Under the pieces are notes generated by a model. The model did no database searches, was not told the DNA's origin, and worked only from the letters and a program-made list of their open reading frames with translations. Below are positions 12,135-62,073 of a stretch of 64,000 nucleotides of DNA, piece by piece (the stretch's first letter is position 1; every line of letters starts with the position of its first letter). Both the position numbers and the translations under genes were made by a program. The stretch spans positions 215,402-279,401 of the forward strand of contig NZ_OZ035017.1 in NCBI RefSeq assembly GCF_964031245.1, read 5' to 3'. Source of the stretch: Rickettsiella endosymbiont of Miltochrista miniata (lineage in GTDB: Bacteria > Pseudomonadota > Gammaproteobacteria > Diplorickettsiales > Diplorickettsiaceae).

Positions 12135-13115
12135 ATGCGCGTTTTAATCATAAAAATGTCCTCAATGGGCGATATTATTCATACATTACCTGCAGTTAGT
12201 GATGCGACTCAGGCTGTTTCGAATATTCAATTTGATTGGGTAGTGGAAGAGGCCTTTACAGAAATTCCTAAATGGCATAAACAAGTTAAACAAATCATTC
12301 CCATCGCACTACGGCGTTGGCGAAAAAATCCTTGGCAATCAGCCAAAAATGGAGAAGTAAAACAATTTTATAAACAATTACGCGCCCAGGAATACGATAT
12401 TGTTTTAGATGCGCAAGGCTCCATCAAAAGCGCGATTACTGCGCGCCTAAGTCGAGGTTGTCGCTTTGGTATGGATAAGCATTCGGTTCGAGAAAGTTTG
12501 GCCTATCTGGCGTACCAGCAAACCTTTTCTGTGCCCTGGCAGCAACATGCCATTGATCGTTTGCGCCAATTATTTGCTAAAGCCTTAAACTATCCTCTAC
12601 TAGAAACGCTGCCCGATTATGGCATTAATAAAGGAAAATTAAGCCAAACTAAAATAGAATTACCAAATGATTATCTGGTCTTTATACCCAATACCAGTTG
12701 TTCAAGTAAACATTGGCCCAATCATTCCTGGGCTTTACTCATAGAAGAAATGACTCGTCAGGGAGTGAGCGTTTTTATTCCTTGGGGAAATGAAAATGAA
12801 AGAAAAAATGCTAATCAGTTGGCTAATAAAAATCCTCTAGCACATGTGTTACCTTATTTGAGTCTCAACGAATTGGCAGCAGTTTTAGCGAATGCTAAAG
12901 CCGTTGTTGCAGTAGATACAGGATTAAGTCATCTGTCTGCAGCTTTGGAGATTCCTACGATGGTTCTATATGGTCCTACTAACGCTTCATTGATAGGAAC
13001 CATAGGTCCTTCACAATGCCATATCAAAATGGCAGCGGGTAACAGCAAGCAAGATAATAATACCATGGTCTTAAAAAAAATAACCGACAATTTGCGGCGC
13101 ATTTTGACACTTTAA
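12135..13115 (+). CDS. waaC: ADP-heptose:LPS heptosyltransferase I
   Basis: N-terminus MRVLIIKMSSMGDIIHTLPAVSDA, and C-terminal AVDTGLSHLSAALEIPTMVLYGPT glycosyltransferase family 9 motifs. Confidence 0.8.
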   Translation: MRVLIIKMSSMGDIIHTLPAVSDATQAVSNIQFDWVVEEAFTEIPKWHKQVKQIIPIALRRWRKNPWQSAKNGEVKQFYKQLRAQEYDIVLDAQGSIKSAITARLSRGCRFGMDKHSVRESLAYLAYQQTFSVPWQQHAIDRLRQLFAKALNYPLLETLPDYGINKGKLSQTKIELPNDYLVFIPNTSCSSKHWPNHSWALLIEEMTRQGVSVFIPWGNENERKNANQLANKNPLAHVLPYLSLNELAAVLANAKAVVAVDTGLSHLSAALEIPTMVLYGPTNASLIGTIGPSQCHIKMAAGNSKQDNNTMVLKKITDNLRRILTL

Positions 13116-13209
13116 TTAATTTAGACTACATAATTTTTGTTCTCTAAATGTTATATTTTTTGACAAACAGAGCAATTTTTAATTTTATCGGCGCATCTAA
13201 ATGTTAATA

Positions 13210-13333
13210 TATACTCACAGCAATGGGATTTTTGGCAAGGCGCGGCGAAAATGAAGCAACCGGAATGTATTAACATACATGAGGATTGCGAGTTGAGCCG
13301 CAACACAGACAAAAATGCAAGTGCGAAGAGTAT
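13210..13333. repeat. Repeat family A copy 2 (contains in-frame ATG at 13251)
   Basis: About 90% identical to 8170-8293 with the same termini. Lies between waaC stop and the conserved PriA N-terminus. Confidence 0.7.
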
Positions 13334-15365
13334 ACTAAAAATTGCTATTCCAGCCCCTCTACATCAATATTTTGAGTATTTGGCTCCAACTGACTTTCCA
13401 TTAACGCAATTAAAAAAAGGGTTACGTGTATTGGTTCCTTTCGGTAATAAGGAAAAAATTGGTTTTTTAATGGAAATTAGTGAAGAATCAATTTGGCCAA
13501 AATCTCAGCTCAAACAAGCACTTGCAATTCTTGATGAGGTCCCGCTTTTACCAGATTCTATCCAAGAGTTATTAGAATGGACAAGTCGTTACTATCATTG
13601 TCCTATCGGAGAAGTATTTGCTAATGCCATGCCGCATGCATTGCGTACGGGAAAAGAGACTAAAAAGCTTAAAAATCCCATTAAGAAACTGACTGAAAAA
13701 ATTAACAAAGGGGATGAGCCCATTGTTGCTACTGCGAATAATTTAAATTTACTGAAACAAATTCGATTAAATACGCATCAGCAACAGGCTATTAAGACTA
13801 TTGTTAATTCCTTAGATAAGTTTCAGGCTTTTCTTTTAAATGGCGTGACAGGAAGTGGAAAAACAGAAGTTTATTTGGAGGTGATACAAGCCGTACTTGA
13901 GCGCGGCAAACAAGCATTGGTATTAGTTCCAGAAATCGGTTTAACACCACAAATGTTAGCGCGATTTCGCAATCGTTTTTCAGTTCCTTTGGTATTGTTT
14001 CATTCTAAATTAACCGATAAGCAGCGCTTAGAAAATTGGTTACTCGCTAAATCAGGTAAAGCATCTATTATCATAGGTACCCGCTCAGCTTTATTTACGC
14101 CTTTATTAGATCCGGGCGTTATCATCATCGATGAAGAACATGATAGTTCTTTTAAACAGCAAACAGGTTTGCGCTATCACGCGCGAGATTTAGCCTTAGT
14201 TCGCGGCCGTTTAGAACATATACCGGTAGTGTTGGGTTCAGCGACAGCATCTTTAGAAAGCATTTTTAATGCCAACCAAAATCGTTATCAAATATTGCAT
14301 TTACCTGATAGAGCAGGATCGGCCGTCCAGCCTACATTTCATTTTATTGATTTACGTCACCAAAAACTTGATCAAGGTTTTTCTCCAGCATTGTTACAAA
14401 CCATGGAAAAACATTTGCAAAAGCAAGGCCAAGTACTTTTATTTTTAAATCGACGTGGCTTTTCACCGGTTACCATTTGTCATGACTGCGGTTGGACAGC
14501 CGATTGTTCGCGTTGCGAACAAAAAATGAATTTTCATAAAAAGCCGGCTCACTTACAATGTCATTATTGTGGCTATCGGCGTCCCTTAGATACCTGCTGT
14601 CCTGCATGCCAAGGTCAACAATTGCTTGCTTTAGGTCAAGGTACACAACGTCTGGAGCAAACCCTGCAAAAATATTTTCCTGACATCGGAATTGTTCGAA
14701 TTGATCGGGATAATACGCAACGTAAAGGAAGCTTAGATAAGTTATTGAAAAATATACATGAAGGTGAAAGTCAGATTTTGATTGGAACACAAATGTTGGC
14801 GAAAGGGCATCATTTTCCAAATGTTACCTTAGTGGGTATTTTAGAAGCAGATAGTGGTTTGTTTAATGCAGATTTTCGTGCCTTGGAACGTACCGGCCAA
14901 TTATTAACACAAGTAGCAGGCCGATCAGGACGGGCCGATAAATCTGGAGAGGTATGGATACAAACCTATCATCCAGAGCATCCTTTGTTAAATCATTTGT
15001 TAGAACAAGGTTATCTTAGTTTTAGCGAAATACTATTACACGAAAGACGAGCCTCTTTATTACCTCCTTATAGTTATTTGGCACTAATGCATGCCGAATC
15101 CATAAACTCAGTTTATCCATTTGATTTTTTAAATGAGGTAAAAAATCAGGCTGAATTAGTTGGGAAAGAAGTCAGCCTACTAGGGCCAGTTCCTTCCTTA
15201 CACCCTCGTCGGGCAGGCTATTATCGTTGCCAACTACTGTTGCAGGCAAAACGGCGTAATGCTTTACAGGGTTTATTAGAGCAAATTATTAAACCCATTA
15301 GTCTTCTTGCCAGTAGCCGTCGGGTTCGTTGGTCGCTGGATGTCGATCCCATCGAGCTTTTTTGA
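13251..15365 (+). CDS. priA: Primosomal protein N' (PriA helicase). The first 28 codons are encoded by repeat family A; the conserved PriA body begins at ...ILKIAIPAPL with no canonical start codon at that point.
   Basis: DEAD/H helicase motifs (GVTGSGKTEVY, DEEH), the Cys4 zinc-binding region (CHDCGW...CSRCEQ...CHYCGY...CPAC), and a conserved C-terminal domain. Confidence 0.93.
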   Translation: MKQPECINIHEDCELSRNTDKNASAKSILKIAIPAPLHQYFEYLAPTDFPLTQLKKGLRVLVPFGNKEKIGFLMEISEESIWPKSQLKQALAILDEVPLLPDSIQELLEWTSRYYHCPIGEVFANAMPHALRTGKETKKLKNPIKKLTEKINKGDEPIVATANNLNLLKQIRLNTHQQQAIKTIVNSLDKFQAFLLNGVTGSGKTEVYLEVIQAVLERGKQALVLVPEIGLTPQMLARFRNRFSVPLVLFHSKLTDKQRLENWLLAKSGKASIIIGTRSALFTPLLDPGVIIIDEEHDSSFKQQTGLRYHARDLALVRGRLEHIPVVLGSATASLESIFNANQNRYQILHLPDRAGSAVQPTFHFIDLRHQKLDQGFSPALLQTMEKHLQKQGQVLLFLNRRGFSPVTICHDCGWTADCSRCEQKMNFHKKPAHLQCHYCGYRRPLDTCCPACQGQQLLALGQGTQRLEQTLQKYFPDIGIVRIDRDNTQRKGSLDKLLKNIHEGESQILIGTQMLAKGHHFPNVTLVGILEADSGLFNADFRALERTGQLLTQVAGRSGRADKSGEVWIQTYHPEHPLLNHLLEQGYLSFSEILLHERRASLLPPYSYLALMHAESINSVYPFDFLNEVKNQAELVGKEVSLLGPVPSLHPRRAGYYRCQLLLQAKRRNALQGLLEQIIKPISLLASSRRVRWSLDVDPIELF

Positions 15366-15437: not shown

Positions 15438-16952
15438 ATGACTATACCCAAAGAATTTCAAGCTGTGGTTAGGCGCACGAGGACGAACGAGCGCAATGTA
15501 TACGGAATACATGAGCACGTGAGTACCGATGTGCAACAACACCACAGCTTGAAAGGCGAAGCGTATATTAGTGTGTTTGATTTGTTCTCAATTGGTATAG
15601 GCCCATCGAGCTCGCATACCGTAGGCCCTATGAAAGCAGCCTGCGCTTTTGTGGAAAATCTGGCGCTTGATTTTGAATTATTTAATGAAATTAGCCGTTT
15701 ACAGGTTGAGCTGTTTGGTTCGCTAGCGCTAACTGGCCGCGGTCATGGCACGGATGTTGCAATTTTAAATGGCCTTGAAGGACAACTTCCTGAAACAGTC
15801 ATTCCCGATGAGGTTGTTCCGCGCGCCAAGTCAATTATTGAAAGTGGTAAAATTCAGCTGGCAGGGAAAAAATTTATCTCATTTTCTGAGAAAACAGACC
15901 TATTATTTCTACAAAAAGCATTGCTACCATTGCATACCAATGGTATGCGTTTTAGTGCCTTTAATACCCAAGGTGTTCTATTAAGTAGTCAAATTTATTA
16001 CTCTATCGGTGGTGGTTTTATTGTCACTGAACAAGAGTTTGGCCAGCAATATAAAGATGCTGTTCCAGTATCTTATCCCTTCTCTACAGCCAGTGAGTTG
16101 TTTAATGCCTGTAAAAAAAATAACTTAACGATTTCGGAGCTAATGTTGGCTAATGAACAACAATTAGCACCCGATAGAGATGTACGCACTGATTTATTGA
16201 AAATAGCCGATACCATGCAAACCTGCGTGGATAGCGGTTGTCATGCTCAGGGAATATTACCCGGCGAGCTTAATGTCAAACGTCGGGCACCGGAACTTTT
16301 CAGAAAAATGAATGATAAAACCACTTCGAAATTAGCGGCGTTTCCAGGGGCATTATTGTGGCCAACCATTTACGCGATGGCAGTTAATGAGGAAAATGCT
16401 GCTGGAGGTCGTGTGGTGACGGCGCCAACTAATGGGGCGGCAGGTATTATTCCGGCGGTATTAACTTATTATCGCCGTTTTTATGAAGATGTCAGTGAAC
16501 AATCGATCACTAATTTTTTATTAACTGCAGGTGCTATCGCTTTACTTTATAAAATGAATGCATCGATATCCGGTGCAGAAGTGGGTTGTCAGGGTGAAGT
16601 CGGTGTGGCTTGCTCTATGGCCGCAGGAGCATTGACGGCAGTTTTAGGCGGCACGTTAGAACAAATAGAAAATGCCGCGGAAATGGCGATGGAACATCAT
16701 TTGGGATTAACTTGCGATCCAGTAGCGGGCTTAGTTCAAATTCCCTGTATCGAACGCAATGGTGTCGGTGCGGAAAAGGCGATTAAATTGGCTTATTTAG
16801 CGTTAATGGAGGATGGGAAAAATAAAAAAGTATCCTTAGATAAAGTCATCGAAACCATGTTTGCCACTGGAAAAGATATGATGGCTATTTACAAAGAAAC
16901 CTCTTTAGGTGGTTTGGCAAAGACACTCGCTGTTAATATCACGGAATGTTAG
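15438..16952 (+). CDS. sdaA: L-serine dehydratase (single-chain, Fe-S). The conserved body starts at ...[22 protein letters not shown], so the ORF's first ~45 codons may be an extension or the true start is an in-frame GTG/TTG.
   Basis: SdaA N-terminal signature and the C-terminal alpha-domain GxCQGEVG motif. Confidence 0.88.
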
Positions 16953-16979
16953 CTATTCTTTTTCTATTTAAAAAAGCCT

Positions 16980-17080
16980 GTCATGGCGAGGCCGAAACGT
17001 CAGTGAGGCTGTGGCCATCCAGAAAAAATTAAGTTTTTCATTGGATTGCCGCGCGCTACGCGCTCGCAATGACGAAAAAT
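16980..17080. repeat. Repeat family B copy 1 (~101 nt; terminal inverted repeats GTCATGGCGAG...CTCGCAATGAC; internal GC hairpin)
   Basis: About 85% identical to 53257-53359. Located in the 3' intergenic region after sdaA. Confidence 0.65.
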
Positions 17081-22310: not shown

Positions 22311-22790
22311 ATGAGCTATATCGATAAAACGCTCTTGCCGGATGAAAAAGTTATATATCGCAGTCATCCTCATTGGATTGTTGTTTTTAAATCGCTAATT
22401 GGCTTGGCTTTAATTGCCGCTTTTTTGATAATGGGGGCTCGCCATTCTGTATTTATCCTCAGTCTTTTTTCTTTATTAGGTTTAGCGGCTCTCCTATCTG
22501 GGCTCATCGTTTACTACTCTTCTGAGTTTGGCATAACCGATAAACGGGTCATCATGAAATCAGGCTTTATCAGTCGCTATGTTTTTGAAAATTCCTTGGA
22601 TCGGATTGAAGGGGTGGAAATTAGCCAAAGTATTATGGGCCGTATTTTCGATTATGGGTCAGTTCGTATTCGTGGGGTTAGTGGGACCAATGAGTTATTT
22701 TCCGCTGTACATTACCCATTTAGATTTCGATATAAGGTGTTAGAAGAAATTGAGCGACAAAAAAAAGCTAAATATACTCTTTGCACTTGA
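22311..22790 (+). CDS. Membrane protein with bacterial PH (bPH_2/YdbT-like) domain
   Basis: Two N-terminal TM helices followed by ...ITDKRVIMKSGFISRYVFENSLDRIEGVEISQSIMGRIF... Confidence 0.6.
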   Translation: MSYIDKTLLPDEKVIYRSHPHWIVVFKSLIGLALIAAFLIMGARHSVFILSLFSLLGLAALLSGLIVYYSSEFGITDKRVIMKSGFISRYVFENSLDRIEGVEISQSIMGRIFDYGSVRIRGVSGTNELFSAVHYPFRFRYKVLEEIERQKKAKYTLCT

Positions 22791-22896
22791 CATTGCCTGT
22801 GTATCGCGGGGATCGCAATTCTCATGTATCTTGAAGAAATGAAGGTTACTTCATTATCGCAGCGTCTTGCCAAAAATCCAATTGCTGTGAGTTAAC

Positions 22897-52436: not shown

Positions 52437-53253
52437 ATGCTACCACTACCCGCACGTAAGCGCTTCGGTCAACATTTCCTGCACGAAGGTTTTGTTATTG
52501 ACAAAATCATATCAGCGATCGCACCTAAAAAAAACCGATCATATGCTTGAGATCGGTCCGGGTTTGGGTGCGCTAACCGAACGACTGTTGCCACATCTTA
52601 AAAGTTTAACCGTAATAGAACTAGATAAAGACCTCATTCCCTTACTAGAAGAAAAATGTGCAGCGCTTGGAGAATTAATTGTTTATCAAGGTGACGTATT
52701 AAAAGTTGATTTTCATACCTTGAGCAAGACTGAGCAAGTTTGGCGTCTAGTGGGAAATCTTCCTTACAATATTTCGACCCCTTTATTGTTCCATTGTCTT
52801 GAACAAGCCAGCATTATTCAAGATATGCACTTTATGCTGCAGAAGGAAGTAGTGGATAGGATAAACGCACACCCGGGACAAGCTAGTTATGGTCGTTTAA
52901 GCGTGATGATTCAGTATTATTGTCAGGTAGAAAAACTATTTAATGTGAAATCAGGCGCTTTCCAACCACCCCCAAAGGTAGATTCGGCGGTGATTCGGCT
53001 TATTCCCCATAAAGTATTACCTTATAAAGCCAATGAGCCCTTGCTATTTGCTGAAATAGTAAAAAATGCATTTAATCATCGACGTAAAATGCTACGTAAT
53101 AATTTAGCTAACTGGTTACAAGAACAAGAATTTGCAGAGTTAAAAATCAATCCGACATTACGACCAGAACAACTGGATGTTAGTGATTATGTAAAATTAG
53201 CAAATTTTGTTGCTAAAAGAAATGAGTTCTATAAGGAGGAAAATGAAAAATAG
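52437..53253 (+). pseudogene. rsmA: 16S rRNA (adenine1518/1519-N6)-dimethyltransferase RsmA/KsgA, interrupted by a +1 frameshift in an A8 tract (52527-52534); possibly a sequencing artefact or rescued by slippage
   Basis: Frame 1 (52437-52550) gives [32 protein letters not shown]. Frame 2 continues [18 protein letters not shown]...NLPYNISTP. Removing one A restores ...[19 protein letters not shown]. Confidence 0.8.
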
Positions 53254-53256
53254 TCC

Positions 53257-53359
53257 GTCATGGCGAGGCCGAAACTTTAGTGAGGCCGTGGCCATCCAGA
53301 AAAAATTAAGCGTTTCACTGGATTGCCACGCACCTAGGGTGCTCGCAATGACGAAAAAT
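53257..53359. repeat. Repeat family B copy 2
   Basis: About 85% identical to 16980-17080. Located between the convergent rsmA and csbD genes. The internal hairpin has compensatory substitutions relative to copy 1. Confidence 0.65.
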
Positions 53360-61269: not shown

Positions 61270-61481
61270 TCTAATTAGATCTTTATTTTAATTTAAACAT
61301 TTATTTATAAAAATAAGTTAGATTTCTAATTTTAATTATTTTCTAATAAATCATCACCTTCTCATATTATAATTAGCAATTATCTAACATTTTATATTAT
61401 TATCAGAATCGAAAATTATTTTTTATAAAAAATAATTGTTATAAAAACAGATCAATAAGGATATTAATATTTAAAAGGAGA

Positions 61482-61979
61482 TTGCCCATGAATTTATTTA
61501 ATTATTCTACATGGAGTTTGTTTTTTACCACTATTTTGCAAGCTGTAGCCGGATATACCTGTCCTAATATAGCCACGATTAACTCAAGAATAGATGCAAA
61601 TAAAACCATGCGATTCCCATTAGCGCAGTGTGTTATCCCAACACGTCGAGGTTATGCTTGGCTTTACAGAGACCATACTAATCAAATTAAAAAATTTTAT
61701 AACGGAGACAGTCATGCAGCAGAAATTGTTTCTATATGGTATCAAAAACCCACCCCTTTTATAAGTCCATTCTTAACTTGCTTTTATAAAGATAAAAACA
61801 AAAAGTTTTTTTCTTTATTAATGGGAGATAAAGGAACCTCGCGAGTCAATACTTCAGCGATAGAAGCTAATTGTAAGCACTGGAAAATATTTCACAGTGA
61901 TGGTCTCTATGTTTGCGGAGAGGAAACGGATGTCAAAAAAGATCTAAAAAAGTGCCAGTTTTATCTTAAGTCCCGTTGA
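61482..61979 (+). CDS. Small secreted Cys-containing protein, paralog 1 of 4 (likely start at the second Met, 61488)
   Basis: Signal peptide ...ILQAVAG|YTCPN; conserved MRFPL, KKFYNG, TC.YKD, YVCGE and KCQFYLK motifs shared with paralogs 2 and 4. Confidence 0.6.
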   Translation: MPMNLFNYSTWSLFFTTILQAVAGYTCPNIATINSRIDANKTMRFPLAQCVIPTRRGYAWLYRDHTNQIKKFYNGDSHAAEIVSIWYQKPTPFISPFLTCFYKDKNKKFFSLLMGDKGTSRVNTSAIEANCKHWKIFHSDGLYVCGEETDVKKDLKKCQFYLKSR

Positions 61980-62073
61980 AATATAAGGAGGTGAACCTAA
62001 AAACATACTAATTAAGCAGGATTGTTATTATAAAAAATATTATCAATTATTAAAATTATTAAAAGGAAAATTT

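Follow-up and report, generated by a model that had tools for sequence, protein, structure and literature searches.

In the Rickettsiella genome analyzed here, a 121-nt palindromic repeat element lies within codon 4 of priA, and the gene most likely begins inside this element, at a TTG codon that follows a GAGGA Shine-Dalgarno-like motif. The window, by which we mean the entire 64-kb stretch of DNA under study, retains the element together with both copies of its TA target site, the native priA ATG upstream of it, and an internal Shine-Dalgarno motif and TTG that are conserved in insertion-bearing relatives. Comparison of these loci makes it very probable that PriA of the insertion-bearing clade initiates inside the element, and likely that the start codon in this genome is TTG 13293, which would yield a 690-residue PriA with a 13-residue extension. 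By this evidence, priA appears to be a clean, phylogenetically supported example of start donation, where a gene would survive an insertion by using the ribosome-binding site and start codon that the repeat supplies. The comparative data, as distinct from annotation alone, suggest that insertion of a selfish repeat into a central replication-restart gene need not destroy that gene, and that a host may rely on the start-donating piece of a repeat for millions of years while the remainder is lost.

The element and the displaced native start of priA

The interval 13210–13334 consists of TA, the element proper (TACTCACAGCAATGGG...GTGCGAAGAGTA) and a second TA (Table 1). The ends of the element are inverted repeats (TACTCACAGCAAT... 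and ...GTGCGAAGAGTA), and the RNA of the element is predicted to form a single long hairpin with imperfect pairing (-41.9 kcal/mol, z = -4.35). That the 5' end of priA carries a repeat had been proposed from the letters of the window, and this is borne out by related copies at 8170–8293 (+) and 22774–22894 (-); the expected number of occurrences of a 33-mer of the priA element in shuffled sequence is 0. The window as a whole holds three clear copies and one divergent copy. With a length below 500 bp, inverted repeats, a hairpin, a TA duplication, many dispersed copies and no transposase gene, the element has the attributes of a MITE. No Rfam family scored above its gathering threshold anywhere in the window, and a promoter and terminator scan of 12950–13450 gave results no better than those for shuffled sequence.

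Comparison of empty and filled sites revealed a TA duplication around a 121–122-nt element at three loci. The target sites are ATGTTTAATA(TA)CTAAAA in priA, ATGAC(TA)TTAGTG in the neighboring gene sdaA, and ATGGCGCT(TA)TTTTAAGA in priA of the related metagenome locus L087, for which L103 provides the empty site (about 672–700).

The original prediction held that priA had lost its native start codon. Instead, ATG 13201 survives 9 nt upstream of the element, displaced and one base out of priA frame, in the sequence ATG TTA ATA TA. The flank that precedes it (..agagcaatttttaattttat..) is homologous to the priA-upstream region of two relatives with empty sites (L082, ATG CTT AAT ATC CTA AGA ATT GCT; L210, ATG TTT AAT ATA CTA AAA ATT GCT), and it is 1 nt short, reading ATGTTAATATA where ATGTTWAATATA is expected. 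Removal of the element and one TA, along with restoration of one base, gives MLNILKIAIPAPL, the N-terminus of uninterrupted relatives. Flank homology and the outcome of this restoration thus indicate that the native start was displaced, not lost, and that the element sits within codon 4. A mobile repeat has indeed reshaped the 5' end of priA, as had been suggested and as the comparative evidence supports, but it did so by inserting into the coding sequence and not in front of the gene. The orphaned ATG now opens a 17-codon upstream open reading frame (uORF), MLIYTHSNGIFGKARRK, whose TGA overlaps the element-internal ATG 13251 in the arrangement ATGA.

Directly 3' of the element lies the conserved PriA N-terminus (ILKIAIPAPLHQYFEY), as originally described; position 1 of the Pfam profile PriA_3primeBD starts at the element/priA junction, and the Ser that immediately precedes ILKIAIP is matched to P2 of E. 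coli PriA. Where the start codon used to lie, the sequence reads AGT ATA CTA AAA ATT, and, also in agreement with the prediction, it offers no canonical initiator. With the native start separated from the priA body, and with ATA 13332 and ATT 13341 in frame, the gene might be non-functional in this genome or be started at one of these non-canonical codons, a reading that we regard as extremely improbable. No Shine-Dalgarno motif precedes ATA or ATT, and the priA body is an uninterrupted run of 676 codons with all six Pfam domains, the Cys-rich region among them. Furthermore, the protein shares 94% identity with the PriA of its nearest relative, and species whose PriA proteins are 78–94% identical have kept this arrangement. 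PF17764, PF00270/PF04851, PF18319, PF00271 and PF18074 all scored above cut-off; the 3'BD, the helicase lobes, the Cys-rich region and the C-terminal domain are each present without interruption, and window PriA matched E. coli PriA (6dcr) over its full length with E = 9e-213.

Table 1. Features of the priA start region and copies of the element in the window
Feature	Position	Strand	Basis or remark
Second full-length copy	8170–8293	+	93% identical to priA copy; between ileS stop and lspA ATG (8295)
Orphaned native priA ATG and 17-codon uORF	13201–13254 (ATG 13201–13203, TGA 13252–13254)	+	flank homology, restoration test
Left TA target-site duplication, priA element	13210–13211	+	empty versus filled sites at priA, sdaA and L087/L103
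MITE-like palindromic element, 121 nt (TACTCACAGCAAT...GTGCGAAGAGTA)	13212–13332	+	repeat family, hairpin
Element-internal in-frame ATG	13251–13253	+	704-aa product; weak AAGG 10 nt upstream
GAGGA Shine-Dalgarno-like motif, element 3' arm	13281–13285	+	7 nt before TTG; GAGG invariant in 8/8 insertion-bearing priA loci
Most likely priA coding sequence	13293–15365	+	TTG start, 690 codons, in frame in 8/8 loci
Right TA duplication, priA element	13333–13334	+	with A13332 forms codon ATA, Ile4 of native PriA
Divergent sdaA copy	15443–15567 including both TA (element 15445–15565)	+	weak nhmmer match; empty/filled comparison
Third, more diverged copy	22774–22894	-	between convergent genes

Start signals of priA in relatives

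The closest PriA proteins (78–94% identity, with P0001 at 94%) belong to Rickettsiella and Candidatus Aquirickettsiella genomes and metagenomes. A scan of genome contigs with PriA was dominated by the generic helicase motif IIIDEEHD, with the relatives listed at 57% identity or less and mostly at 41–48%, and an exact-sequence look-up of window PriA and WaaC returned no match. The N-termini of PriA in relatives fall into two classes: the native form, M(L/F)NILKIAI..., and a form extended by exactly 13 residues, (M/L)S(D/G)NTDKNSSAKS-ILKIAI..., where the extension is the translated 3' end of the element. DNA was examined for seven extended alleles, namely those of L081 (the nearest relative), L083 (Rickettsiella endosymbiont of Aleochara curtula), L084–L086, L208 and L209. 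A comparison of priA 5' ends in close relatives had been proposed as a check on the original prediction, and it revealed the same insertion in all seven, with GAGG(A/G)-N7-TTG in the priA frame in 7/7 relatives and in the window, although these eight loci would not count as independent if they inherited the insertion from a common ancestor.

The remainder of the element has fared differently among the relatives. L081 and L083–L086 retain only the last 55–65 nt, from near (C)ATGAGGATTGCGAG/TTG, and have lost the native ATG and the element 5' arm by at least two different deletions. Only GAGGGTTGCACG/TTG and 13 codons remain in L208, and L209 has kept the native ATG and a heavily decayed full-length copy that is 67% identical to the family consensus, versus 90% for the window priA copy. 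In L081, L083 and L085, no ATG, GTG or TTG other than this TTG lies between the preceding stop codon and the conserved N-terminus. In L209, an upstream in-frame TAA leaves only the TTG or a GTG four codons later. As a separate observation, the waaC stop overlaps the element-derived priA TTG (TTGA) at 2990–3010 of L208, the most divergent insertion-bearing relative, and priA may be translationally coupled to waaC there.

The original prediction had priA borrow its start from the repeat at ATG 13251. The borrowing itself is supported by the relatives, which argue that the gene now starts inside the repeat. The codon is most likely another one: TTG 13293 and its GAGGA motif were absent from that prediction, and they are the only start signal common to the window and all seven insertion-bearing relatives. 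ATG 13251 is, as stated, the first in-frame ATG, with AAGG 10 nt upstream. Initiation there would produce a 704-aa protein with a 27-residue extension beginning MKQPECINIHEDCE, perhaps by re-initiation coupled to the uORF, and we consider this rather unlikely. In its favor, no other in-frame ATG intervenes between the upstream stop and this codon, its overlap with the uORF stop was confirmed, and its surroundings are somewhat more accessible than the TTG region (P(unpaired) 0.46 versus 0.36). Against it, ATG 13251 has no real Shine-Dalgarno motif beyond the AAGG, is an element subfamily variant absent from the family consensus, and owes its overlap with the uORF to a 1-nt gap that may be recent. 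Moreover, its position is absent or deleted in L081 and L083–L086, an in-frame TAA blocks it in L209, and priA is intact in all of these. The part of the element that carries GAGGA and TTG thus appears indispensable for priA and the part with ATG 13251 does not. By sequence, GAGGA-N7-TTG 13293 seems a much better initiation signal than that before ATG 13251.

TTG is a weaker initiator than ATG, and ATGA stop-start overlaps are a classic arrangement for termination and re-initiation. Because the orphaned uORF ends on it, ATG 13251 is a possible secondary start, and its use instead of, or as well as, TTG 13293 is unlikely though not negligible. A point against TTG 13293 is that the motif and start codon are partly paired in the full hairpin of this genome, where mean P(unpaired) is 0.61 for the Shine-Dalgarno region and 0.36 for the TTG region; mean unpaired probability is similar in this full-length context and in those of the truncated relatives (0.28–0.42). 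Where a copy is full-length, the hairpin could tie initiation to translation from the orphaned native start. The orphaned ATG may still matter in this genome because the uORF crosses the hairpin 5' arm and stops on ATG 13251, and we speculate that its translation opens the hairpin and frees the Shine-Dalgarno motif and TTG, and/or allows re-initiation.

PriA translated from TTG 13293 is predicted to begin with a 13-codon element-derived extension (fM-SRNTDKNASAKS) and to continue with native PriA from Ile4. Selection on the extension peptide, raised as a possibility in the original prediction, is not indicated: the 12 residues after the start show a mean identity of 48% among 17 orthologues versus 84% for the next 50–100 PriA residues. 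Element remnant DNA diverges about as fast as the third codon positions of adjacent priA. The extension does not vary in length, at 13 codons in 17 sequences, and this constancy, along with the 48 versus 84% identity, suggests that selection acts on start signals and reading frame, not on the peptide. Because the start signals are conserved and the peptide is not, the 690-aa product of 13293–15365 is the most likely PriA. Gene callers pick different starts, so that annotated PriA varies from 678 to 721 aa in length among the relatives examined, and these calls are not independent evidence on the start site. In Rickettsiella and Aquirickettsiella genomes, calling by longest ORF gives priA, lspA and other genes starts that are wrong or inconsistent, and pseudogene finders may flag genes hit by the element.

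Insertion history of priA and neighboring genes

We propose that a non-autonomous inverted-repeat element inserted into the TA of priA codon 4 (ATG TTW AAT A/TA CTA AAA). The insertion added 123 nt to window priA, no stop interrupts the priA frame anywhere in the element, and the native ATG of L209 is still in register with the element's open frame; the original insertion was therefore most likely in frame, with 41 residues read from the native ATG. The first product would probably have been PriA with a 41-residue insertion, a state still present in neighboring sdaA. The 3' arm of the element would have brought an initiation cassette, GAGGA-N7-TTG, in a frame that runs out into the host gene. 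Initiation would then have shifted to the internal TTG, with the upstream part becoming dispensable and decaying. Decay would have consisted of a 1-nt loss in this genome, putting the native ATG out of frame, of a stop codon and frameshift in L209, and of deletion of the native ATG and 5' arm in five other relatives.

The missing base (ATGTTAATATA versus ATGTTWAATATA) might instead reflect faulty assembly or a polymorphism of very recent origin, such that a PriA of about 721 aa with the 41-residue insertion starts at ATG 13201. Restoring one base does give MLNIYSQQWDFWQGAAKMKQPEC...SILKIAIP across the 123 nt of element and TA, neighboring sdaA is in exactly such an in-frame state, and L209 has kept its native ATG in that register. 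We still judge this explanation to be highly unlikely. The window is dense with intact long ORFs and shows no sign of indel-prone assembly, read-through from the native ATG is lost in every relative examined (by deletion, stop or frameshift), and no PriA homologue with a 41-residue-insertion N-terminus was present among the best 120 database matches. Initiation at TTG 13293 is the reading we retain.

The distribution of the insertion among relatives is complex. In a neighbor-joining (NJ) tree of PriA that included relatives P0001–P0035, extended alleles were monophyletic in 0/200 bootstraps and were interleaved with native alleles, and at least 4–7 gains or losses of the insertion are needed on this tree. 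A single ancient insertion without losses was rejected by this NJ tree of a single protein, although recombination could give the same pattern. The pattern at priA could have come from several precise excisions, from several insertions at one and the same TA, or from recombination among lineages.

Two further genes of the window have a copy of the element at or just before their starts. In sdaA (15438–16952), the divergent 121-nt copy and its TA lie in frame after codon 2–3 and the native ATG 15438 is retained; comparison with the empty sites of L082, L083 and L085 shows that exactly 123 nt were added in the window. SdaA is 504 aa in the window and L081 versus 463 aa in L082–L086 because the in-frame copy adds 41 residues, and position 1 of the SDH_beta profile starts at SdaA residue 45. 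The copy upstream of lspA ends 1 nt before the lspA ATG 8295, and the lspA frame runs through the element without a stop (ORF 8088–8774). L083 has the same copy with identical junctions, and its lspA is annotated at 187 aa, not 159. The copy is absent from L081, the nearest relative, though present in the more distant L083, a distribution that hints at recombination or excision. At the other end of a gene, the copy at 22774–22894 supplies the last residues (..KYTLCT) and the stop of a bPH_2-domain gene (22311–22790). A second, unrelated 85-nt repeat (AAAAAAGCCTGTCATGGCGAGGCCGAAAC...) is present at 16970–17054 and 53247–53331 (88% identical), the first copy beginning 18 nt after the sdaA stop.

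The element family and known palindromic repeats

The family is abundant in related contigs. Metagenome contigs were scanned with a degenerate 5'-arm pattern that matched more than 120 stretches, and a profile search of the fetched loci identified at least 171 full-length copies, at least 163 of them non-duplicate. Copy lengths, including both TA, peak at 124–126 nt. The family has a strong orientation bias: among the matches listed for 163 copies, long ORFs leave the 3' end of the element within 60 nt in 85 cases versus the 5' end in 27. ORFs with a frame that reaches into the element prefer the ..AAG AGT frame (28/53, p = 0.003), and those opening after the element have no frame preference (11/11/8). 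Element ends 0.2–4 kb apart were sought in the fetched loci as a sign of a mobilizing IS, and only ordinary genes were found between separate copies. As a conjecture, the mobilizing transposase may belong to a TA-duplicating family such as IS630.

Fusions of the element to housekeeping genes were found at several loci (L126 5976–6670, L187 124–1212, L114 1564–2376, L124 4724–5725, L153 3710–4669, L091 5240–6438, L108 and L095). The 3' arm (..HEDCELSGNxxKNSSAKS) is joined in frame, a few residues from the first Pfam position, to Pth, a cysK-like PALP protein, PrmC, SucA and a HAD phosphatase. Fusion to TrmB and TruB is likewise in frame, with the first profile position further in, and an S13 peptidase gene in related metagenome contigs has an N-terminal in-frame fusion to the 3' arm. 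In several fusion genes the element TTG (-40) or ATG (-61) is the sole available start; in pth and the PALP gene, the TTG is the sole in-frame start.

The full-length copy in priA of L087 (5931–6066) is inserted 2 nt 5' of the insertion site seen in the window. L087 PriA is 69% identical and its gene has different synteny, and this insertion appears to be an independent hit at the same spot of priA. Because 124 nt were added, the native priA ATG of L087 is out of frame, and the element-internal ATG with GGAG-N7 is the likely start. These data lead us to a tentative reading of the family, which we hold with slightly less than even confidence: it may act as a portable translation-start cassette, with a 3' arm that carries one or two Shine-Dalgarno-start modules (GGAG-N7/8-ATG and GAGGA-N7-TTG) and a stop-free leader reading out of the element, that has captured priA at least two times independently (in the clade of the window and in L087, at positions separated by 2 nt) along with many housekeeping genes, and of which the host keeps only the start-donating half. 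If true, insertions in the first codons of essential genes survive by taking over initiation.

Several known repeats share features with this family. Rickettsia palindromic elements (RPE) are described as inserting in frame into housekeeping genes (Ogata et al. 2000, as summarized in PMC10969869). Like the family here, they are short (~100–150 bp) palindromic mobile repeats of an intracellular bacterium that are translated within a host protein and long tolerated. The sdaA copy, with its 41 extra residues, is a direct analogue of an RPE insertion, and RPE-like in-frame insertion with an intact host protein is seen in sdaA, priA (123 nt), pth, truB and trmB. RPEs are described as internal insertions read from the host start, whereas the family here is found almost only in the first few codons and has its own Shine-Dalgarno motif and start. 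RPEs reside in Alphaproteobacteria and the present host belongs to an unrelated lineage, the Coxiellaceae/Legionellales, so that the likeness is one of behavior; membership in the RPE family by sequence is unlikely because the host is a gammaproteobacterium.

Correia elements of Neisseria are known donors of promoters, IHF sites and RNase III targets, not of a start codon and leader peptide. The family here, unlike Correia elements as compared by description only, is predicted to donate a start codon and leader peptide. Correia/NEMIS elements resemble it as ~100–150 bp MITEs that duplicate TA, adjoin gene starts and alter downstream expression (PMC10969869).

ERIC elements, including RU-1 and RU-2, are 127 bp with a 41-residue frame, form hairpins and are fused to the N- or C-termini of host ORFs, according to Delihas 2007 (PMC2759123). 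Similar size, hairpin-forming inverted repeats, open reading frames and host-ORF fusions make them a close parallel. The ERIC fusions are inferred there from annotations of mostly hypothetical loci, and the passages of PMC2759123 consulted mention neither a conserved start-donating cassette nor an essential-gene case followed across species. Membership in the ERIC family was rejected, as blastn (word size 11, E <= 10) gave no match in 5,426 complete E. coli genomes. The MITEs of Coxiella burnetii are likewise elements of Coxiellaceae that overlap ORFs: QMITE1 is 300–400 bp with variable direct repeats of 2–4 bp, QMITE2 is 150–190 bp with direct repeats of 7–11 nt and a GTAG REP, and the overlap of both with annotated ORFs mostly involves the 3' end of the gene (Wachter et al. 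2018, PMC5896051). By these published descriptions, QMITE1 and QMITE2 are set apart from the present element with its 121 nt, TA duplication and location at gene 5' ends.

Our literature search found no description of a Rickettsiella repeat or MITE matching the element. Because its behavior is RPE- and ERIC-like and no description was found, with RPE, Correia and QMITE elements compared by description, we file it as a new MITE family of known type. Its distinctive habit seems to be location in the first codons of genes, in one orientation, with its own Shine-Dalgarno motif and start. An abundant MITE family is thus present in a genus for which a recent comparative-genomics preprint reported one mobile element in its whole dataset (10.1101/2024.12.03.626579).

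Other repetitive sequence occurs elsewhere in the window. Tandem repeats with a 99-nt period (~33 codons) occupy 3023–3681, inside a long ORF at 2522–4480 (-), and 61480–64000 holds clustered small paralogues (~160 aa each), the upstream regions of which are also repeated (families D2, D3, D5 and D7).
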